The notes under the pieces are model-generated. The model was not told where the DNA came from and did no database searches. It saw only the letters and a program-made list of their open reading frames with translations. This document shows, one piece after another, positions 18,391 through 30,518 of a stretch of DNA of 64,000 bases. Position 1 is the first letter of the stretch; each line of letters opens with the position of its first letter. The position numbers were made by a program, and so were the translations under genes. The DNA is from Candidatus Shapirobacteria bacterium (GTDB lineage: Bacteria > Patescibacteriota > Microgenomatia > UBA12405), in assembly GCA_016188545.1 (NCBI GenBank), contig JACPHO010000001.1, forward strand, positions 90,774 to 154,773. Reading direction: 5' to 3'.

Positions 18391-18682
18391 TCCCCCTTAG
18401 CTCAGTGGTAGAGCGCTCGCCTGTGAATGAAAATCGCAGCTTTCTCAAGTAATTGAGACTGAAACTCCGGAAGAATTCAGGGAAGCCTAAGATACCTTAC
18501 GGTATTATGGTAATCCTGAGCCGATCCCCAACGCAAAGTTGGGGCAGGTGCAGAGACTAGGTGGTACACCGTTTAGCCTCCGGCTCCTGACTATTGTCAG
18601 GATGAAAAGATAGTCCAGGCCTCAATGAAAGTTGAGGATTCCTGTAAGCGATTGGTCCGAAGTTCGAATCTTCGAGGGGGAG
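18391..18682 (+). tRNA. tRNA-Asn(GUU) split by a group I intron between nt 35 and 36
   Basis: Exons 18391-18424 and 18645-18682 fold into a cloverleaf: acceptor UCCCCCU/AGGGGGA, D-arm GCUC-AGUGGUA-GAGC, anticodon stem CUCGC/GCGAU, loop CUGUUAA, T-arm CGAAG-UUCGAAU-CUUCG. It has U1-A72 and discriminator G73. No CCA is encoded. Confidence 0.7.
18425..18644 (+). ncRNA. group I self-splicing intron (small tRNA-type, no ORF)
   Basis: Recognised pairings: P1 exon CUGU with intron GCAG; P2 TCTCAA/TTGAGA; P6 CCCCAA/TTGGGG; P7 GACTA/TAGTC within conserved CAGAGACTA and AAGATAGTCC elements; P8 CCTGAC/GTCAGG; P9 CCTCAA/TTGAGG. Terminal G at 18644. Confidence 0.75.
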
Positions 18683-18759
18683 CAAGTATAAAAAATACCT
18701 AAAAATACGTAATATATGTGTATGTTATCTCCAACATGGGAGACAAAGTATAATACATC

Positions 18760-19284
18760 ATGAACTTGATACTCCTTGGAGGAAATGGTGTCGAAAATAA
18801 GATGTGGATTGAAAAGATTGAAACCACGCTTAAACCATTATTTTCAACTACCTATATTCAATATTACATGCACTGGCAAAAGGGAGGGGAAATGGTAGAT
18901 ATCAACCTTGAGGCGAACAAGTTGTCAAGCTATGCAAAAGACATTAGGGAATATGTAATTTTTGCAAAATCAGCAGGAATTCTGATAACCGCAAAAGCAG
19001 TTCACGATAATGCCTTAAGACCTGTAAAATGTATTTTCACTGGCATTCCAATAAGTTGGGCAATAAGTAAAGGTTTTGATATATCAAACTGGTTTGAAGG
19101 ATTTAAGGACACCTCCTTAGTGATCCAGCACAACGAAGATCCGTTCGCATCTTCTAAAAACGTATCAGAGTTTATTACCAAGGAAAATATGATTAACACA
19201 AATTTGGTCGAACTTCCGGGGAATACACACGATTACCTTGAGTACGATAGAATAAAAAAAATAGTCGCGGATTTTGTCTACTAA
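18760..19284 (+). CDS. hypothetical protein (possibly alpha/beta-hydrolase-like)
   Basis: 174-aa ORF. First gene of the islet downstream of the tRNA. Weak fold guess only. Confidence 0.3.
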   Translation: MNLILLGGNGVENKMWIEKIETTLKPLFSTTYIQYYMHWQKGGEMVDINLEANKLSSYAKDIREYVIFAKSAGILITAKAVHDNALRPVKCIFTGIPISWAISKGFDISNWFEGFKDTSLVIQHNEDPFASSKNVSEFITKENMINTNLVELPGNTHDYLEYDRIKKIVADFVY

Positions 19285-19395
19285 CTGTCTATACGACCAT
19301 AATGCTTTGGATCGAGTTTGATACGTTTAACATCTTTCATCTATATTGATACATATAGTGATATAATCCACAGAAATTAAGAAAACAGTCAATTT

Positions 19396-20736
19396 ATGGC
19401 AACGGAACAAATAAGATACTACGATGTTTCCATAAATCAGAACATGTCACAGCTAACCGGACAGACTCTAGACACCGCAGAGCTAGTTGGCCGAAAAATT
19501 GCCGCGGACCCAATATTGTTTAAATCGAGAGGTTTAGTCGACCAAATCGGAAACTTTGACTTTGATCCAATTGGTATCAAAAAGTCTTCGCGGTGGGAAT
19601 CAGCTGTTGCCACGATGATATATGCAATTTCAGATCAAATACCAAACCGGGAAGAGATAAAAAGAGGAAGACAGATCATTGAAGTACTACCAAAAAGCAT
19701 AAAAGAGCAAATAAACAGAGAATTTATACTGGGTTTTCTGCCATACTTTTTAACTGGATTCAACTTCCACACTGGTGATCATTTTGTTGAAGATTCAAAT
19801 ACCGTCAAAGACGGCGCCACTTTTATTGAAGAGGTCCATGGAAAAACAGAAATACGCACAAGTTCACTGCTATGTGCACACCGTGAATCACATAAAGTCA
19901 AAGAGCTTTCTCTAAGAGATCATATACACACGACAAAAGCAGTAAGGGCACTTAATCTTTTTTTTGGTTTAGTAGGTAACAGCACCAGCCAAACATCAAT
20001 CATCGATTGGTATCAGCAATTTTCTACTAAAAGAGCATCATCAAACATATTTCCCGAAATTTTTATTGGCTATCTTAAGACCGGGAAAATTAGTGACCTC
20101 GTGAGGGTATTAGATTTACATCAAAGAGAACTCGAACAATTAATGGCTAATGCCACCAGAGTAGATACAAATATTTCACTAAAATCACTTGATCTCTTTA
20201 CAACCCAAGTGGAGACTTTTTTATCTGATAGATACGGTGTGGATTGGGCAAGTCACGAGAAACCCGGCCAGTCAGACGCACTGACTGATATAACAACAGG
20301 ATTCACCCTTCCAGAAGTAACTAGATTGATGCCGTTTTATGGACAATCTGCGGCGGAAATACGTACTCTTGAAGCCTATCGTCAAATAAATATTGATATG
20401 GCCGAAGATCAAAGAGAAAGCGATCTTGTAAAGCAGATATTTGATTGGTTTGTTCAAAACCAACGAATGACGAAATACAGTAAAGCTCTTTTTGAAACAG
20501 CTCAGTACTACTTATGGGGCTCTACTTCAGCCAGGGACGGTTTAGTTTGTCTAGGCATCGACCGTGACCACAGTAATTATCAGCGTCTAGCATTTCAACA
20601 AGGTTTTCTTGATACGCAAGGAACAACCAACGTTAAGAATGTTCCTTTGTTGTACGCCAGAAGACGGGACGCTGAAACGTCAAAAGGAATATTAAGTGAA
20701 ATATCGTTTAGACAGTTTTGGAGAGATACAAATTAG
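19396..20736 (+). CDS. hypothetical protein
   Basis: 446-aa ORF. Overlaps the transketolase start by 19 nt, so it probably sits in the same operon. Confidence 0.5.
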   Translation: MATEQIRYYDVSINQNMSQLTGQTLDTAELVGRKIAADPILFKSRGLVDQIGNFDFDPIGIKKSSRWESAVATMIYAISDQIPNREEIKRGRQIIEVLPKSIKEQINREFILGFLPYFLTGFNFHTGDHFVEDSNTVKDGATFIEEVHGKTEIRTSSLLCAHRESHKVKELSLRDHIHTTKAVRALNLFFGLVGNSTSQTSIIDWYQQFSTKRASSNIFPEIFIGYLKTGKISDLVRVLDLHQRELEQLMANATRVDTNISLKSLDLFTTQVETFLSDRYGVDWASHEKPGQSDALTDITTGFTLPEVTRLMPFYGQSAAEIRTLEAYRQINIDMAEDQRESDLVKQIFDWFVQNQRMTKYSKALFETAQYYLWGSTSARDGLVCLGIDRDHSNYQRLAFQQGFLDTQGTTNVKNVPLLYARRRDAETSKGILSEISFRQFWRDTN

Positions 20737-22676
20737 AATCTAATATGCCAACAGAAAGACATCGTGATTCAGATAAACTAACAGCATTATCTTTAGAAAT
20801 TAGACGTTCAGTATTCCAAACAATTGTTGATGCTAAAAGCGGACACCTTGGGGGTAACTCTTCTTCAGTCGAGTTGCTGACATGTCTTTATTTTGGAGGA
20901 ATATTAAGGTTTGATCCAGCAAATCCAAAAGCTGAAAACAGAGACAGGGTCTTGATTAGGGGACACGAGGGCCCAGTCCGATATAAGATTTTTAGTTTAA
21001 TGGGCTTGTTTCCCGAGGAAGAGCTGAAAACATATCGGCAATTTGGGTCAATACTACAGGGTCATGAAGACATGCATACCACTCCCGGTGTCGATATAAC
21101 CCCATCTGGTTCTCTTGGAATGGGACTTTCATATGGCATCGGTTGCGCCATATCCGCCAAAGAAAAAGAGCTAGATTATAGAACATTCGTATTTTTAGGT
21201 GATGGAGAAGAACAAGAAGGAAATGTGAGTGAGGCGGCAAGACACGCAACTAGTGCTGGACTTAATAACCTTATCTGTATACTTGATAAAAACGACAAAC
21301 AATTATCTCGGCCGACTGTCGAATCTGACGGTGGTGCCGACGTAAAAACAATCTGGCGGGGTTATGGTTGGAACGTTATTGAGGTTGAAGATGGTCACGA
21401 CATTGAACAAGTAATGGCCGCTTATTCCAAGCTTGATTATATCCAAAAACCAACCCTTATCATCGCTCATACGATTAAAGGAAAAGGAATCCCTGGTGCT
21501 GAGGAGAATTACTGCGGTTTCCATACTCTTAGTGTTTGTCCACCAGAGTCAGCTCGGTTTGCATTAAATAATGCAACTCAGGAGGTTGAGGCTCGCCGTG
21601 CAGAAGTTGACGCAGTCACATTACACACCAAAGATATGGTTAGACGTCCAAACGTAGCTCCATTGATCACTACAGTGAGTGAGATACCCACCATTGAGGT
21701 TGAAGTTGATCCTAATGACAATCGTAATTTGGATAATTCGCAAGGATTTTATTTCGATAAGCTTAGGCAGGCAACTCGAAATGGAGAATCGATGAAATTA
21801 TACGTTTTGACCCCCGACTTTATTAGAAAAGATACTGTTGAACAGGTGTCATTTCATGAGTTCGCTAGATATATTGACGCAGGAATAAGGGAGCAACACA
21901 CAATTGCCATGGCCCATGGGATATCCATTACCGATCCGTCTGCTAGAATTTTTATCAATTTCGGCGATGCCTTTATTTATAGAGCTATGGATCAGCTTAA
22001 TGCAGCTGCCCAAGGAGGAAGTAGAATGTTAATAATCGGGGAACATAGTGGTCTAACACAGGAAAGAAATGGCAAAACTCATCAGACAAGTGGTCAACCA
22101 GGGGCCCTAGTCAATATGCCTGGTCTAACATTTAAAGAACCTGCCGATGTCCAAGATCTTTATAATGTCCTAAATTGGGCGTTCACTAATAATCCTGGAG
22201 TTATTTATGCCAGAATACACCGTAAAAACATCACTCAGCTATATAGAGAGGAAAAAGACAAACGTAATATTACCTCATACATAACTCACGATCCAGGTAA
22301 AAAACCAGGGCTTGTTATTGTTGGTAGTGGATTCACAACCCAAAACTCAGTCGAGGCTGCAAAAATACTGGAGTCAAAACATGGAATTCCGACTCGGGTT
22401 ATAAATGTTGTTGGGCCAGTAGAACTTGGTGATAACTTTGTTGGTCAAACTGAAGATGGTGTACCGCTTCTTACAGTCTATAATGGCAATAGAAGAGTAT
22501 TACAATCAATGGTGAGTCTGGCAATCATGGATTCAACCGTCGCCCGTCCCAGTGTAATAAAAAGTCATGGTTTTGACTATGGGACAACAGGAGGGATCAA
22601 AGACCTTGAGAAGCACTTCCAACTGGATAGTGAAGGTATAGTCCAAGTAGTTAGAAATTCGTTTTCGATTTCATGA
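20718..22676 (+). CDS. tkt: transketolase
   Basis: N-terminal SGHLGGNSS. RDRVLIRGHEGP. TPGVDITPSGSLGMGLSYGIGCAI. ThDP motif LGDGEEQEGNVSEAA. Then LICILDKND. 652 aa. Confidence 0.85.
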   Translation: MERYKLESNMPTERHRDSDKLTALSLEIRRSVFQTIVDAKSGHLGGNSSSVELLTCLYFGGILRFDPANPKAENRDRVLIRGHEGPVRYKIFSLMGLFPEEELKTYRQFGSILQGHEDMHTTPGVDITPSGSLGMGLSYGIGCAISAKEKELDYRTFVFLGDGEEQEGNVSEAARHATSAGLNNLICILDKNDKQLSRPTVESDGGADVKTIWRGYGWNVIEVEDGHDIEQVMAAYSKLDYIQKPTLIIAHTIKGKGIPGAEENYCGFHTLSVCPPESARFALNNATQEVEARRAEVDAVTLHTKDMVRRPNVAPLITTVSEIPTIEVEVDPNDNRNLDNSQGFYFDKLRQATRNGESMKLYVLTPDFIRKDTVEQVSFHEFARYIDAGIREQHTIAMAHGISITDPSARIFINFGDAFIYRAMDQLNAAAQGGSRMLIIGEHSGLTQERNGKTHQTSGQPGALVNMPGLTFKEPADVQDLYNVLNWAFTNNPGVIYARIHRKNITQLYREEKDKRNITSYITHDPGKKPGLVIVGSGFTTQNSVEAAKILESKHGIPTRVINVVGPVELGDNFVGQTEDGVPLLTVYNGNRRVLQSMVSLAIMDSTVARPSVIKSHGFDYGTTGGIKDLEKHFQLDSEGIVQVVRNSFSIS

Positions 22677-23350
22677 AAAAAAGAATCCTTATGGTTGGAG
22701 GTTGCTCGAAAATTGCGTCACATTTTATTAAAAGACATCATCGTAAATTCATTATTGACATTACTACTCATTCCAGTGTTCCAACTGGATTACCAGATTC
22801 GGTTAATAATTTTTCATTAGACCTTTCCGAAAATAGTTCAATTAAAAAACTATCGAGACAATTAGTCAACTATCGCTATGACGGAATATTATTCTTTTCT
22901 GGCACATACTGGGCAGATGAATGTAGCAACCAAAAAAAACTAGAAGAATCAATAAAAGTAAATTTTTTGAGTAGCCTTGAGTTGTTGGATAGCCTTAAAT
23001 TAAATAATAGTTCTAAAATAATATTTTTTACAGATGAAGGTATTTCCCAACCCAAAAGAAACTATCTTTCATATTCATTTTCAAAAGCATTGCTACAAGA
23101 TTATATTAGGCTACTTGCAGTTAAATACTCGTCTACCTCTTCGGTAATTGGCATCGGATTGGGACCAACAGTAACAGATAAAACAGGACAAGATAAAGTC
23201 AAGTATTTTTCTAAAAGTCTAATCTCTGTAAAAAATCCGTGTTTGGGTTTAGTGAACTTAATTAATTTTATTATTGGCGAAGATAACTTTTACTCAACTG
23301 GAAGAATATTACCCTTTGATGGTGGTACATATATCCGAAGGACAAATTAA
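22673..23350 (+). CDS. Rossmann-fold NAD(P)-binding protein (SDR-like)
   Basis: N-terminal ILMVGGCSKIASHF glycine-rich turn. ATGA overlap with the tkt stop. Confidence 0.45.
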   Translation: MKKRILMVGGCSKIASHFIKRHHRKFIIDITTHSSVPTGLPDSVNNFSLDLSENSSIKKLSRQLVNYRYDGILFFSGTYWADECSNQKKLEESIKVNFLSSLELLDSLKLNNSSKIIFFTDEGISQPKRNYLSYSFSKALLQDYIRLLAVKYSSTSSVIGIGLGPTVTDKTGQDKVKYFSKSLISVKNPCLGLVNLINFIIGEDNFYSTGRILPFDGGTYIRRTN

Positions 23351-23351
23351 C

Positions 23352-23942
23352 TCAGCTTTTGTTGGTAGATAGCCTAGAATTTTCTATGTCCCTGAAAAAC
23401 TGGTCAATAAAGTCATTTCTATGAAGTAACTCCCCAGTTTTTATCGTGGTTTTTGTAACAAAGTCACTTTTTTTAACGCCTCTCATGCTCACACACAAAT
23501 GCTCTGCCCCCACATGAACAATAAGTCCCTTGGGATGCAAGTTTTTCTCTATTGATTCTGATAGTTGATTTGTTAAGTTCTCCTGAGTTTGTAGTCTTTT
23601 CGAGAAAGAATCAACTAGCCTAGCAAATTTAGATAAACCCAACACCTTTCCATTTGGAACATACCCAATGTGAACCTTCCCTTAAAATGGAATCATATGG
23701 TGTTCGCATAAACTATAGAAACTTATGTTTGCGACTGTAATTAGTTCGTGATAACCGTTGCTTTCAAACGTCTTAAATATTGAGACGATATCGTCGTTAT
23801 AACCAGAGAATAACTCCTTGTACATCTTTATTACCCGCTGGGGTGTCTCAACTAAACCCTCCCTCCCAGCATCTTCCCCAAGATAAGTAAGTAAGCCTTT
23901 TATCAAATCCGTTGCATATTTATCGTTTTTTTGCGTCTCCAT
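23352..23942 (-). pseudogene. folE: GTP cyclohydrolase I (folE) interrupted by one in-frame TAA
   Basis: N-part ...REGLVETPQRVIKMY...CEHHMIPF, then TAA (plus-strand TTA at 23682-23684), then in the same frame GKVHIGYVPNGKVLGLSKFARLVDSFSKRLQTQE...VHVGAEHLCVSMRGV. The stop replaces the aromatic residue that is Tyr in B. subtilis FolE and Phe in E. coli FolE. Confidence 0.85.
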
Positions 23943-24229
23943 AGATTATATCTTTTACTTATTTGCGTAATTATACGATTATTATGCTCACAGTCAAGAT
24001 ATGAACATAAACTAACTTTGGTATATCAAATACATAGTTCCTCTCCCAACCAATTACGTAAACAAGTAAAGTTTCGGTATATATACCATATCTCTGAGTA
24101 TTAAGTAGTGAAAATAGGCATAAAGTTGCTATGTAGACTAGAATTTAGGTAAGTTTTAACCCATTCCTCTATCCGAGTACTATCCCAACGAGGGAGCACT
24201 TCGGCAAGCTCAGTGCAAGCTTGTCAAAA

Positions 24230-24532
24230 ATGAAAACAGAAAATTGGTATACATACATTCTTTTGTGCGATCAGAAAACTTCTTATGTCTGAATAACAAA
24301 TGATTTAAAAAGTCATATAAATAGTCATAAATCAAAACAAACATTTTTTACAAAAAAGTTTTCTGATATACGATTAGTATATTGCGAAAAATACGGAACC
24401 AACCATGAAGCTGCTCTTCGTGAAAAACAAATCAAAGGATGGAGCCGCACAAAAAAGCAAATGTTGATTGAAGGTAAACTAGGAATCAATCGCTACACTG
24501 AGTTTGACGAAATTCTTTCCCATTTAGATTGA
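24230..24532 (+). pseudogene. small GIY-YIG nuclease-superfamily gene (YhbQ/UPF0213-like) with in-frame TGA at the conserved Gly
   Basis: Manual translation: MKTENWYTYILLCDQKTSYV-TGA(24290)-ITNDLKSHINSHKSK...FSDIRLVYCEKYGTNHEAALREKQIKGWSRTKKQMLIEG... The TGA sits where the G of the Y-[IV]-G motif is expected. Confidence 0.65.
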
Positions 24533-24561
24533 ACCTTGTGAGTTTACTTCGAGCGAAGCCG

Positions 24562-24610
24562 AGAAGAATCCTCGAGGGGGAGCATTAAAAAAGTCCGACA
24601 AAAATGGCGG
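24562..24610 (+). repeat. direct repeat of the tRNA-Asn 3' end (att-like)
   Basis: GAATCCTCGAGGGGGAGCA (24566-24584) matches tRNA 3' end GAATCTTCGAGGGGGAGCA (18666-18684) at 18/19 positions. The following approximately 25 nt are also similar (TAAAAAA...CC...AAAAAT in both). Same orientation, 5.9 kb apart. Confidence 0.6.
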
Positions 24611-24751
24611 ATTTTTTAATGTCTTCTTCAGAATATCAGAATTACCAAAGGCAGTTGAGCTTGTACCTTTTTTCTTCCCCCTTCTCTATGATTGGCACAC
24701 CTAAATACCCCATGGTATTGACAAAATCGCAATATTAACCTATAATACGAA

Positions 24752-25699
24752 ATGCGTACCAAACTCGTCATGACTCTGGTGACTCGGGATGAAGACGATA
24801 TTCTCGAAAAAAACATTTGTTTTCACCTTAACCACGGAGTTGACTTTATTGTTGCTGTTAACAACGGTTCAAAGGACAGTACTCGCCACGTCTTGGAGAA
24901 ATACGCCAGAATTGGACTTCTGGCCTATAAAAACGTACCCGAGCATACCAAAGAACAAAGCCGTTGGGTTACAGATCTAGCCAATCTCGCTGTCAAAAAG
25001 TATCACGCTACTCATCTTATCCATGTTGACACCGATGAATTTTGGTTCCCAAAATCCGGCAACCTAAAGAATCATCTTCCTGTTAACCGGCAGGTTGGTC
25101 TTGTTCCCTCGTTAAATTATCTACCGCCTTCATTTGCACAAAAACTGTCTTTAAAACGCACCGTTGTTTCCCACCCTTACTCTCGCCATGCTCTTTTTCA
25201 AACCGATGAAAGTTATCGTTTCTTGCTATTTGCCCAACAACCCAAAGTTGCCACCACTAGCCATCACACCCACATAGCCCAAGGTAACCATTTGGTTATT
25301 AGCCCTGGACGTGTTAAGTATTTACCGATAAATGGAATCACTATCCACCATTTTCCCATCCGTTCTTTTGCCCAGTTCAAAACCAAGGTCAAAAATGGTG
25401 GTTCCGCCTACCTCAACCATCCTCATTCTAACCCGGGAATTGGATGGCATCAAAAAAGCTGGTACCACTATTTTCAACAAGGACTACTGCTCGATGTCTA
25501 CCATCAGCTAACCATTTCCGCTTCCGAAAAACGTCTACTTTTTAACAATGGCAATTTATCAAACATTCGACTACCCTTATCCATTCTATGCGCTCCGATA
25601 ATATTTACTCTCAAAAGATATTATCTCCGTCTTGTAGCTATTCGTTCACAATTTAATTCGTTCCGTCAAAAACTTGTACTAAACCCGGCTTTCGATTAA
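24752..25699 (+). CDS. glycosyltransferase family 2-like protein
   Basis: N-terminal LVMTLVTRDEDDILEKNICFHLNHGVDFIVAVNNGSKDST and acidic HVDTDEFW motif, as in GT2-like family proteins. Confidence 0.55.
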   Translation: MRTKLVMTLVTRDEDDILEKNICFHLNHGVDFIVAVNNGSKDSTRHVLEKYARIGLLAYKNVPEHTKEQSRWVTDLANLAVKKYHATHLIHVDTDEFWFPKSGNLKNHLPVNRQVGLVPSLNYLPPSFAQKLSLKRTVVSHPYSRHALFQTDESYRFLLFAQQPKVATTSHHTHIAQGNHLVISPGRVKYLPINGITIHHFPIRSFAQFKTKVKNGGSAYLNHPHSNPGIGWHQKSWYHYFQQGLLLDVYHQLTISASEKRLLFNNGNLSNIRLPLSILCAPIIFTLKRYYLRLVAIRSQFNSFRQKLVLNPAFD

Positions 25700-25827
25700 G
25701 TTAATACGCCGCCTTCCATATTTCACCTAACACTGGAAGCGTGCGCAATAGGACTTATTTTTAAACTAAAATAGGTCCTGATTTTTCGTACCATCATGGA
25801 CATTTGAACCTTTGGTAGAATTGACCA

Positions 25828-26949
25828 ATGACAATTGACTCAGTTAGTGAAAATCTTTTCAAAATTGCCTTGTATTTGGAAAAACTAATACCAGGCATGG
25901 TATCTGAGGTTTGGATTGACGATGATTTGTTAAATCATCTCAAAAATAACCTCCCGGACCAAAGTAATGTATTGGATTTAATTTGTCAAACAAAATCTCT
26001 CATTAGAGAGATTTTAGATGAGAAAAGAAAGCAATATCTGAAAGAAGTTCTACAAAGCCTGGAATTTCAAATAAATAGTGCAGATAAAAAACTTCCATAT
26101 GAGGTAATTTCCGAAAAAACATTTGGTTATAAAATCACCAGAGTTGGGGAAAAAGACATTCGGATAATTGAAGAAAAAATTAGAGATTTGGAAACCAAAA
26201 TTGGTCTCTCTCGCCAAGAAATCTATATTAAAAACTTGGTTAATCCAGAAGAGTACAAATCAGTTTTTGAGAAAAATATTCAAACAGTCAAAGATAAACT
26301 ACCCGCTAGTATATTGGATTTCCCAGATGGAGGTTTTCTCTTTGAAACTACAATCAATAAACCTTGGAGTGCTTTTAACTCTCATATTGCTCCCTTCAAA
26401 TCAAAATTGACTCTAAACACTGATTTACATTTCAATACCTATGACTTATTTCGTCTATCTTCACACGAAGCTTACGGTGGACACCATTCTGAGCTATCAA
26501 ATAAAGACAAGCTACTTGTAGAAAGAGGTTTTGGTGAGCATGGGTTAGTTATCAATCTCAGTCCCCAGACTTTTATAAGCGAAGCTATCGCTGAAGGGAT
26601 TTATATACTTCTCAAAATTGCTGATGAATCAAATCTTGAGGAACAACTAACTTGGTACTATAACCGGCTTACTTTTGCCCTACAAAATTTGGCTACATTT
26701 TTATATAACGATGACGGAAAAAGCGTTGAGGAGATAAGAAAGACGATTAGTGAATACTATATTTCTGATGCCACCGTTAACCTGATAGTCAACTTTTCTA
26801 CTGATCCGGTATTTGGTAAATACGCACCGGTCTATTATTCTGCCTTCAACTTCCTATCTGACCTCTTTCAAAAATCGTTAAACAAAAATGAACTAATAGA
26901 AACGTTATTTACAAAACCATGTACTCCAGAGCTGTTAACAAAAAAATAG
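25828..26949 (+). CDS. hypothetical protein
   Basis: 373-aa ORF with His-rich SSHEAYGGHHSE segment. No confident family. Confidence 0.45.
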   Translation: MTIDSVSENLFKIALYLEKLIPGMVSEVWIDDDLLNHLKNNLPDQSNVLDLICQTKSLIREILDEKRKQYLKEVLQSLEFQINSADKKLPYEVISEKTFGYKITRVGEKDIRIIEEKIRDLETKIGLSRQEIYIKNLVNPEEYKSVFEKNIQTVKDKLPASILDFPDGGFLFETTINKPWSAFNSHIAPFKSKLTLNTDLHFNTYDLFRLSSHEAYGGHHSELSNKDKLLVERGFGEHGLVINLSPQTFISEAIAEGIYILLKIADESNLEEQLTWYYNRLTFALQNLATFLYNDDGKSVEEIRKTISEYYISDATVNLIVNFSTDPVFGKYAPVYYSAFNFLSDLFQKSLNKNELIETLFTKPCTPELLTKK

Positions 26950-27161
26950 CTAGTCAATATCCACACGTCGCCTTCCCGATTTCCTCTAACGCTGGGGGCA
27001 CTAAAGTACAGAAACAACCACTAAATTTCACAAACGGACAACACAACAAATTAATATTCCCCAGATACATGTAAGGAATTGCGCATACAAACCTTACATC
27101 CCATATGCTGATGTTAGGTTTCATGAAAATTGTCAAAAGAGTTATACTTGTCTTGATTTAT

Positions 27162-28180
27162 ATGATTAAAAAACTACCAGACAATCAAATAGCTTTCTAT
27201 CAAACTCCTGACGGGTCGGTAAATATCGAAGTACTGTTTGCGGAAGAGAATATCTGGCTTACCCAGAAGAAGATGGCTGAGCTTTTCGATTGCTCGATAG
27301 ATAATATTTCGCTTCATTTGAAGAATATTTATCAAGAAAATGAGGTTTATCAAGAGTCAACTATCGAGGAATTCTCGGTAGTTCAAAAAGAGGGAGACAG
27401 AGAAGTTTCCCGAAAGGTTACTTTCTATAGTCTTGAGGCAATTATTGCTGTTGGTTACAGAGTCAGTTCTGAGCGGGGTGCACAGTTTCGCCAGTGGGCA
27501 ACCGGAATTTTGAAAAACTATATCCACAAAGGTTATGTCCTGGATACTAATCGGATGAAGTATGGTTCCCGCTTTAGCGCGAGGTATTTTGACGAGCTTT
27601 ACGAAGAAATTAAGGACATCCGTACCAGTGAACGGATGATCTATCAAAAAATCACTGATATTTATGCCACAGCAGTTGATTACTCGCCACAGGCGTATGA
27701 GAGTAAACAGTTTTTTGCGACTGTTCAAAATAAACTTCATTTTGCCATTACTGGTAAAACCGCCGCAGAAATCATAGTGGAACGTGTCAGCAAAATAGAA
27801 AAGAAAAAATGGGATTGACTTCCTGGAGGCGATCTCCAGAAGGCAAAATTATGCCAAGTGATGTTACAATCGCGAAAAATTATCTGGATAAAAAGGAGCT
27901 GGCTCATCTCAATAGCATCGGCAATATGTATTTGGATTACGCTGAGTTACAAGCCGCTCGTGGCAGAGCTATGACGATGAAAGATTGGGTAGAAAAACTT
28001 AACGCTTTTTTGAAGTTTAGTGAATACGAAATTTTAACCAATGCTGGAAAAATTAGTCATGAAGTGGCCGAGACCTTAGCATTAAAGGAATATGAGGTAT
28101 TTAAAAAAGAGCAGGACAAACACTACATTTCCGACTTTGACAAAGTGGTCAAAAAATTGCTCAAGAGCAAAAATAAATAA
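27162..28180 (+). pseudogene. RhuM-family virulence/defence protein, frameshifted in a poly-A tract
   Basis: N-part QIAFYQTPDGSVNIEVLFAEENIWLTQKKMAELF...VGYRVSSERGAQFRQWATGILKNY. C-part MGLTSWRRSPEGKIMPSDVTIAKNYL...MYLDYAEL lies in the other frame. Restoring one A in GAAAAGAAAAAATGG (about 27795-27809) fuses them. Confidence 0.8.
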
Positions 28181-29750: not shown

Positions 29751-30518
29751 ATGTTAACTACAAATCAATTAAAAGATTTTTCAAAAATACTAAAAATAAA
29801 TGACAGTGTTGTGGCTCGGGAATATATTCAAACACTATTTCTAAAAGAATTATATGAAGAAAAATATAGCCAAAATATATTTTTCAAAGGGGGTACAGCC
29901 ATTAGACTAATTTTTGGTGGCTCCCGTTTCTCTGAAGATTTGGATTTTACAGTTAACGAAAATATCGAAGACTTTAACAATTTTATTAATAAGTTTTTCC
30001 GGAAAGTAAATAAGTTACATGGATTTACATTTAAGAAAAGAATTACAATTACCGGACTAAAGTATTTACTCACTGCTAATTCGGATAATGCGAATCATTC
30101 GGTATTTATCAGTCTTGATTTTTCATTTCGGGAAAAAGTTTTAAAACCTGATCAATCAATAATTATCACCCCCTATCCGGTAATTTTTACTTCTTTTGTC
30201 AGACACCTGTCAGCTGAAGAAATCACCGCCGAAAAAGTTCGTGCTATCATGACCAGAAATAAAGGCCGTGACATTTATGACTTATGGTTTTTATTAAGTA
30301 AAAATATTTCTCTAAAAAAAGATTTAATAGAGGAAAAACTTAAGTATTACCAAATTAAGTCCTTTGATCAAAAAGCATTAATGGACAGAATAAGAGTTTT
30401 TAATCGTGACAAATTCGTGCTTGATTTAAGGCCGTTTGTTCCCATCAATGAGAGGGCTAAACTGCCCGACTTTTTTGATTTCACCCTGGCTTTCATAAAG
30501 ACAAAATTGCATTCCTGA
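29751..30518 (+). CDS. AbiEii/AbiGii-family nucleotidyltransferase toxin
   Basis: FFKGGTAIRLIFGGSRFSEDLDFT nucleotidyltransferase motif (GS...D.D) characteristic of DUF1814/AbiEii. Confidence 0.8.
   Translation: MLTTNQLKDFSKILKINDSVVAREYIQTLFLKELYEEKYSQNIFFKGGTAIRLIFGGSRFSEDLDFTVNENIEDFNNFINKFFRKVNKLHGFTFKKRITITGLKYLLTANSDNANHSVFISLDFSFREKVLKPDQSIIITPYPVIFTSFVRHLSAEEITAEKVRAIMTRNKGRDIYDLWFLLSKNISLKKDLIEEKLKYYQIKSFDQKALMDRIRVFNRDKFVLDLRPFVPINERAKLPDFFDFTLAFIKTKLHS

Follow-up and report, generated by a model that had tools for sequence, protein, structure and literature searches.

A nonsense-interrupted GIY-YIG gene in a Shapirobacteria genome and its place in a candidate tRNA-associated cassette

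Stand-alone proteins of the UPF0213/YhbQ/COG2827 group have been described as the minimal form of the GIY-YIG domain (PMC1564403). SegB of phage T4 is placed in the T4 tRNA gene region (PMC13096335). Here we consider a gene of the UPF0213/YhbQ type in a 64,000-nucleotide stretch of a Candidatus Shapirobacteria genome (the whole of which we call the window), where an in-frame TGA falls on the glycine of the YIG motif. UGA is read as glycine under genetic code 25, which is used by the Gracilibacteria and Absconditabacteria. A preliminary description of the window, made from its sequence, accordingly offered two explanations: the gene could be a decayed native gene, or it could be a code-25 gene that was acquired horizontally and cannot be translated in its present host.

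Our results favor decay. We put at roughly 85% the probability that the frame is a recently inactivated stand-alone UPF0213/YhbQ (prokaryotic Slx1-like) nuclease gene, lying in a standard-code Shapirobacteria genome and forming the core of a decaying cassette of a kind found behind tRNA genes. A single G-to-T change would have turned the glycine codon of the YIG motif from GGA into TGA, and full-length nuclease would no longer be made.

The interrupted frame and the genetic code

The gene and its internal stop are placed as follows.

24230-24532, plus strand: GIY-YIG pseudogene (UPF0213/YhbQ-type, about 100 amino acids), identified by translation and by domain and structure matches
24290-24292, plus strand: internal TGA, codon 21, at the YIG-motif glycine; ancestral codon GGA

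Translated, the frame reads MKTENWYTYILLCDQKTSYV-stop-ITNDLKSH...REKQIKGWSRTKKQMLIEGKLGINRYTEFDEILSHLD-stop, which amounts to 100 sense positions, a single internal TGA (in the context Y-V-stop-I-T-N-D) and a terminal TGA. With the glycine restored, the protein scored 54.1 bits against the Pfam GIY-YIG profile PF01541 (cut-off, 22.6) and matched the solved UPF0213 proteins BH0048 (1ZG2; E=4e-7) and EF2693 (1YWL; E=1.8e-4), which bears out the YhbQ/UPF0213-type identity first proposed for it. The stop aligns with the glycine of Y-T-G-Y-T and Y-G-G-Y-T in these two proteins, and the column is glycine in 119/119 homologues; the claim that one TGA in an otherwise open frame sits on the invariant YIG glycine was thus correct. 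The window copy keeps the tyrosines (WYTYIL) and Glu65 (REKQ). Its catalytic motif is not intact, Gly21 being a stop and Arg29 a histidine, and the uninterrupted frame of about 95 to 100 codons that marks the family is broken by the one TGA at codon 21. By these comparisons the gene belongs to the GIY-YIG UPF0213/YhbQ type by descent, though as a non-functional member.

We compared codon 21 with its counterparts in relatives, which were gathered by a search of 5.8 billion proteins that returned 392 of them. Besides the window's own fragment, the best relatives are full-length (97-100 amino acids) and 72-82% identical. The codon is GGN in 92/92 homologous copies from all fetched loci (GGC 26, GGT 23, GGA 22, GGG 21) and GGA in all 8 of the closest copies, which are 73-82% identical to the window's; in a DNA alignment, each of the six closest loci reads TAT GTT GGA AT, versus TAT GTC TGA AT in the window. 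The named relatives come from Shapirobacteria, Woesebacteria, Gottesmanbacteria, Nealsonbacteria, Roizmanbacteria-type and other Patescibacteria, those at 40-50% identity come from many other phyla, and no code-25 lineage (Gracilibacteria or Absconditabacteria) occurs among the named hits. Contigs carrying the closest homologues have normal coding density under code 11, and TGA is a stop there too.

The window itself tells the same story. Under the standard code, non-overlapping open reading frames (ORFs) of at least 120 amino acids cover 84% of it, and ORF coverage grows by just 1.5% if TGA is taken as a sense codon. The 59 long ORFs end in TAA (28), TAG (21) or TGA (10), and the tkt ORF at 20718-22676 is among those that end in TGA, in keeping with the earlier statement that TGA is a terminator here. 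No release-factor motif was found in the window, the only tRNA in the window is a tRNA-Asn, and a listing of the window's in-frame TGAs between long TGA-free stretches was too noisy for use.

Descent from a code-25 lineage (Gracilibacteria or Absconditabacteria), followed by horizontal transfer into a host that cannot translate the gene, would explain why TGA stands exactly at the invariant glycine, where it is one base away from GGA. The closest relatives nevertheless have GGA and lie on code-11, Patescibacteria/Microgenomates-type contigs that stop at TGA, only one of the five glycine codons in the frame is TGA (three are GGA and one is GGT), and the cassette flanks described below are typical of the same standard-code lineages. 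We give this origin almost no credence, and the transfer suggested in the preliminary description is contradicted by the very homologues nearest to the gene. The stop's position on an invariant residue is also unremarkable: the frame abounds in codons a single base short of a stop, and of its 57 potential single-base nonsense changes, 65% hit invariant or near-invariant columns. Judged by these codon comparisons, the internal TGA is best regarded as an ordinary GGA-to-TGA nonsense mutation and not as the trace of an alternative code.

It is also conceivable that the gene is intact in the organism and that the TGA either arose as an error of sequencing or assembly or represents a minor allele that the consensus has fixed; apart from the TGA, the frame does lack any frameshift or second stop. 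Against this, the product of a different assembler, the Logan assembly of SRR12113420, holds a 22,390-bp contig (recorded in 2 samples) that matches window positions 21752-27386 with zero mismatches over 5,635 bp and carries the same internal TGA, together with the same in-frame TAA in the neighboring folE gene. This identity excludes an assembler artefact. The window protein, moreover, deviates at 4 of the 41 columns with a conservation of 90% or more in the 119 homologues (F18S, G21stop, R29H and S38T), and only 2 of those 119 show four or more such deviations. One of these changes independently strikes the conserved catalytic arginine, R29, which aligns with a conserved arginine in both 1ZG2 and 1YWL, and two more strike near-invariant residues. 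An error or minor allele is therefore improbable; given the TGA in the Logan copy and the missense changes at conserved residues, we conclude that this is a real and fairly recent pseudogene. The single GGA-to-TGA change and the further damage at conserved residues likewise support the decayed-gene alternative of the preliminary description.

Pairwise dN/dS (the ratio of nonsynonymous to synonymous divergence) is 0.13-0.19 between the window copy and its five closest relatives and 0.05-0.23 among intact copies. These low values indicate purifying selection through most of the gene's history and hence a recent inactivation. Other family members also carry in-frame stops (TGA at W71, TAG at K54 and one TAA), and truncated remnants occur as well; nonsense decay is thus common in the family and is not specific to TGA at glycine.

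A last alternative is suggested by the public annotation. NCBI annotates only the 79 codons past the internal stop, as the 'GIY-YIG nuclease family protein' MBI2464639.1, which begins at the ATA directly after the TGA and is deposited on a 563,806-bp contig of Candidatus Shapirobacteria bacterium. If that call is taken at face value, the downstream product could be functional, or the TGA could be decoded by readthrough, by a suppressor tRNA or as selenocysteine. The 79-residue product, however, is without the entire GIY...YIG beta-hairpin, and the first ATG, GTG or TTG past the stop comes only at codon 78. Decoding, for its part, would leave the catalytic arginine abolished by R29H regardless, and it would apply to a position that is glycine in every homologue while TGA terminates 10 other ORFs in the window. 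We consider both versions highly improbable, and the deposited annotation is a pseudogene fragment.

The cassette around the gene and its relatives

The GIY-YIG gene is the core of a cassette of about 370 bp, the parts of which are listed here with lengths in nucleotides (nt).

24189-24198, plus strand: degenerate left-hand copy of the tRNA-Asn 3' end (CGAGGG--AGCA), directly adjoining the 5' motif; about 10 nt left, CGAGGGAGCA
24196-24220, plus strand: 5' cassette motif as a whole, hairpin plus block
24196-24216, plus strand: 5' hairpin, GCACT-TCGGCAAGCTC-AGTGC; stem covariation across the family
24199-24220, plus strand: 5' motif block, 22 nt, CTTCGGCAAGCTCAGTGCAAGC; invariant in 7 close loci, unique in the window
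24498-24511, minus strand: inverted copy of the hairpin-loop motif, within the last ORF codons (TEFDE), from motif comparison
24540-24565, no strand assigned: 3' cassette end with a second, interrupted inverted motif copy, GAGTTTAC..CCGAGAAG; conserved in loci L002 and L086
24566-24584, plus strand: copy of the last 19 nt of tRNA-Asn (T-loop to discriminator, plus CA), GAATCCTCGAGGGGGAGCA; 18/19 identical to 18666-18684
24585-24620, plus strand: terminator-like hairpin, then a T run; -9.7 kcal/mol, z = -4.2

The cassette runs, 5' to 3', from a hairpin motif through an ORF with an inverted motif in its last codons to a second inverted motif, a tRNA 3'-end copy and a terminator hairpin, the last of which (24585-24620) is presumably the original terminator of tRNA-Asn. 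Uninterrupted counterparts of the second inverted copy, CTGAGTTTACCGAAGG, are present in loci L084, L085 and L007. The 27 nt upstream of the ORF, GAGCACTTCGGCAAGCTCAGTGCAAGC, do not vary across seven loci that encode proteins of 72-82% identity, and the cassette flanks are more conserved than the gene itself. Neither in the window nor in 12 related loci did the flanks reach the gathering score of any Rfam family; hits by E-value were at chance level only. Upstream of the cassette (23943-24205), alignments to tRNA-like sequence or to a second decayed GIY-YIG ORF were no better than those of shuffled sequences.

In Patescibacteria relatives, the ORF begins 21-48 nt past a same-strand tRNA gene (tRNA-Asn, Gln, Glu or His); behind the ORF, the final 11-20 nt of that tRNA recur without a mismatch, and a terminator-like hairpin comes next. 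Three close relatives of the window's cassette (L086, L004 and L005) stand behind tRNA-Asn genes with nearly the same exon sequence as the window's. The first of these, L086, is a cassette 78% identical to the window's beside a bacterial-type tRNA-Asn nearly identical to the window's, and it comes from GCA_035562735.1, an assembly that bears the label Candidatus Methanoperedens sp.; its contig has the look of Patescibacteria DNA that was binned into an archaeal metagenome-assembled genome (MAG).

We scanned metagenome contigs for exact matches to a 24-nt motif and recovered at least 120 loci. Among the matches listed, the motif abuts a tRNA 3' end at 57/116 sites, representing 19 anticodon types, and a GIY-YIG ORF follows it at 39/99 sites; a tRNA-end repeat is present at 16 of the 19 sites that have both a tRNA and a full ORF. 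Repeat lengths in this set peak at 18-19 nt (25/32), and the distance from motif to repeat is bimodal, at 330-415 nt with an ORF versus 82-92 nt in ORF-less cassettes that keep both ends. These short cassettes, which retain their repeat and stand behind tRNAs, have the form expected of non-autonomous derivatives. Tandem cassettes and motif arrays exist too. In three metagenome loci (L096, L195 and L207), ORF-less arrays repeat the hairpin motif head to tail (repeating unit CACTTCGGCAAGCTCAGTGCAGG), about every 21-31 nt. In two others (L114 and L137), tRNA-Asn is followed by the motif and by GIY-YIG remnants that end right past the K-T-F-Y codons; this break point, within two codons of the position of the window's stop, may be a recurrent deletion point.

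The hairpin motif is shared well beyond the Patescibacteria. Across 45 distinct instances from many phyla, a variable stem of 5-7 bp (GCACT/AGTGC, ACCCT/AGGGT, ATGCT/AGCAT or ATGGT/ACCAT, for example) encloses a conserved 11-nt loop, TCGRCARGCTC. The stem covariation score is 0.391 versus 0.170 ± 0.020 for shuffles (0/500), and slid partners score at most 0.18. In unrelated phyla, too, GIY-YIG genes are flanked by this hairpin, in both orientations. An inverted loop motif lies within the last 25 ORF codons (conserved T-E-F-A/D-E) in 15/19 related copies, versus 0.75% of shuffled tails, and the second inverted copy sits just ahead of the tRNA-end repeat. With its 5' motif and two inverted 3' copies, the cassette therefore has inverted terminal motifs resembling terminal inverted repeats and the ends of miniature inverted-repeat transposable elements (MITEs) and REPINs. 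Relatives show a target-type duplication of 18-19 nt; the window's cassette has a degenerate left copy, and its full counterpart stands 5.9 kb away. Family members are 94-103 amino acids long with one domain only.

One Parcubacteria locus, L046 (4408-5228), has a GIY-YIG copy and hairpin motifs about 160 nt downstream of a transfer-messenger RNA (tmRNA) gene. This case suggests that tRNA-like 3' ends in general may be used as sites.

The tRNA-Asn gene and the surrounding region

The tRNA that matches the cassette's repeat lies 5.9 kb upstream and is itself interrupted; the intervening DNA is a gene cluster.

18391-18683, plus strand: tRNA-Asn(GUU), the cognate tRNA of the cassette; found by ARAGORN with introns allowed and again after in-silico splicing
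18425-18644, plus strand: group I intron, 220 nt, ORF-less, in the anticodon loop of tRNA-Asn; Rfam RF00028, 69.8 bits
18760-23942, no strand assigned: native cluster between tRNA and cassette, comprising a 174-aa ORF, a 446-aa ORF (aa, amino acids), tkt, a short-chain dehydrogenase/reductase (SDR) gene and folE (minus strand); synteny with locus L211

A default ARAGORN run reports no tRNA in the window and so misses this gene. Among bacterial tRNAs, group I introns are known in tRNA-Leu, fMet, Arg and Ile.

The preliminary description had placed the GIY-YIG gene at the end of an 'att-bounded islet'. The repeat pair on which that proposal was built is real: the 19-nt sequence GAATC[T/C]TCGAGGGGGAGCA occurs at 18666-18684 and 24566-24584 with an 18/19 match. 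The islet's content, however, does not look acquired, since it holds no foreign cargo and neither Pfam nor PHROGs identified an integrase between the repeats. What it does hold is a five-gene cluster that is syntenic in Woesebacteria, where locus L211 (4002-9221) keeps all five genes in unchanged order and orientation, with ORFs of nearly the same length (174, 446, 647, 226 and 194 amino acids) at 51-69% identity; most of the five are also present in Roizmanbacteria (L210, 4067-8624). Near the cluster in L211 and L210 there is neither a tRNA nor the hairpin. From this synteny, the stretch 18760-23942 is a conserved Microgenomates cluster native to the genome, and the supposed islet owes its right-hand repeat to the GIY-YIG cassette. 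Most simply, the cassette would have been parted from its tRNA by a rearrangement at the tRNA end. Within the cluster, the relatives of the 174-aa ORF have a weak Abhydrolase_11 match, the 446-aa protein, which has no Pfam hit, shows tight linkage to tkt in three lineages, and tkt itself encodes HYV64_00700 in the window.

Two further genes near the cassette are broken.

23352-23942, minus strand: folE (GTP cyclohydrolase I) with an in-frame TAA at 23682-23684, CEHHMIPF-stop-GKVHIGY; relatives have phenylalanine
27105-28180, plus strand: rhuM-family gene split by a frameshift; ORF 27105-27818 corresponds to Pfam profile positions 1-145 and ORF 27809-28180 to positions 150-249

The folE nonsense allele next to the cassette had been reported before, and we confirmed its TAA at 23682-23684; two substitutions are required to derive it from the phenylalanine codon (TTT) of relatives. 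The rhuM gene, 3.3 kb downstream of the cassette, is the third broken gene within 4.5 kb. Past the cassette, from 24.7 to 31 kb (including 29751-30518), the window has a glycosyltransferase, the broken rhuM, a SWIM-domain protein, an AbiEii toxin and a GNAT gene; by this gene content the stretch would be variable or defence-like, as is typical of a tRNA-adjacent hotspot.

A candidate mobile element and its comparison with known systems

How might such a cassette have arisen and then decayed? In related Patescibacteria, the cassette would behave as a selfish insertion element placed directly behind tRNA genes. Its nuclease may nick or cut the 3' ends of tRNA genes or its own hairpin, insertion may duplicate 18-19 nt of the tRNA end, and the ORF would normally be expressed by read-through from the tRNA promoter. 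In the window, a rearrangement would have set the native 5.5-kb cluster between tRNA-Asn and the cassette; cut off from the tRNA promoter, this copy would have lost expression and selection, and decay would have followed.

More broadly, the pseudogene may mark a family of very small, seemingly undescribed mobile elements, which combine a GIY-YIG nuclease of about 98 amino acids, a conserved-loop hairpin with inverted 3' copies, insertion at tRNA or tmRNA 3' ends with an 18-19-nt duplication, ORF-less miniatures and solo hairpins. We advance this only tentatively, at slightly less than even odds. Full-text literature searches found no published description of such a cassette, although the library was incomplete and this is absence of evidence only; likewise, the papers that could be searched make no mention of a hairpin and tRNA-end repeat architecture for UPF0213/YhbQ.

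A different account is that the hairpin and tRNA-end repeats form a host module for tRNA trailers or tRNA processing, in which the GIY-YIG protein would serve the cell as a tRNA-associated factor and the window copy would be a decayed native accessory gene. This would fit the solo hairpins that abut tRNA 3' ends with neither ORF nor repeat at 19 of 50 tRNA-adjacent sites (among the matches listed). It would also fit the searches for empty sites and for viral carriage: among 200 loci we found only tandem-cassette junctions and no empty site, a search for an orthologous empty site in metagenome contigs by way of the downstream glycosyltransferase yielded none, and viral contigs had no exact copy of the motif. 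A host module does not readily explain, however, why each repeat matches its own neighboring tRNA across the 19 anticodon types listed, why tandem cassettes and ORF-less miniatures with both ends exist, why nonsense-bearing and truncated copies are frequent or why GIY-YIG genes of unrelated phyla have the hairpin beside them in both orientations. On balance, we judge the host-module account unlikely.

The solo motifs and the missing empty sites also weigh against our own reading of an inactivated gene in a decaying tRNA-associated cassette, as do several other points. The mobility of the cassette is inferred from architecture alone, and the nuclease activity and its target are putative. The window's 5' hairpin is not thermodynamically significant on its own and draws its support from covariation alone. 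The rearrangement invoked to set the native cluster between tRNA and cassette is conjectural, and the rise in dN on the window branch is only modest. Finally, the Logan contig may stem from the MAG's own library, and the population may be polymorphic, with GGA in some cells.

With the window copy read as a pseudogene, a false lead is removed: nothing here points to the flow of code-25 genes into a standard-code Patescibacteria genome, and recoding should not be read from an in-frame TGA at a glycine position alone. It is the cassette family, rather than the flagged stop, that merits follow-up. UPF0213/YhbQ proteins are widespread, and the combination of hairpin, tRNA-end repeats and miniatures yields a testable hypothesis, namely that the Patescibacteria branch, at the least, is made up of nuclease cassettes that propagate themselves and target tRNA genes, with the hairpin and the tRNA-gene 3' end as candidate DNA substrates for the nuclease. 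Since this hairpin is found with UPF0213-type genes of many phyla, a selfish-element role would, if this is true, extend to part of a large family.

Set beside known systems, the window gene resembles code 25 in having a TGA codon at a glycine position, but TGA serves as a stop in the window and in every close relative, and an isolated case better fits a point mutation. To UPF0213/YhbQ/COG2827 (prokaryotic Slx1-like) proteins the likeness is closest, with about 100 amino acids, a single GIY-YIG domain and no accessory domain; the window copy differs in its stop at the YIG glycine and its histidine in place of the catalytic arginine. Free-standing GIY-YIG homing endonucleases such as the T4 Seg proteins and I-TevI offer a second parallel, as selfish nuclease genes beside, and presumably targeting, conserved genes (here tRNA genes), with copies that often decay. 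T4 Seg and I-TevI-type enzymes have a C-terminal DNA-binding domain and are roughly 200 amino acids or longer, whereas the cassette protein has about 98 and no such domain, and classical homing involves neither 18-19-nt target repeats nor hairpin ends, both of which the cassette has.

REPIN/RAYT systems and MITEs (PMC3116915, PMC3337134) share with the cassette a nuclease gene between inverted hairpin-forming repeats, ORF-less miniatures and solo or arrayed repeats. RAYTs, however, are HUH/Y1 transposases and the cassette encodes a GIY-YIG nuclease, and REPINs are neither targeted to tRNAs nor bounded by 18-19-nt target repeats; the mobile-element reading, if true, would make the cassette a GIY-YIG analogue of REPIN/RAYT systems. 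The cassette also resembles tRNA-targeted integrative elements, in which inserted DNA is bounded by a direct repeat running from the tRNA T-loop to the 3' end, and the tmRNA site of L046 adds to this likeness. It differs from them in having no integrase and in its size of only about 370 bp. The length of its repeat is unlike that of classical transposon target duplications, and the tRNA-specific sequence of the repeat is unlike a fixed phage-type attachment site (attP). Near-identical cassettes stand behind 19 different tRNAs among the matches listed, each with its own repeat, and a fixed attP is therefore hard to reconcile with them.

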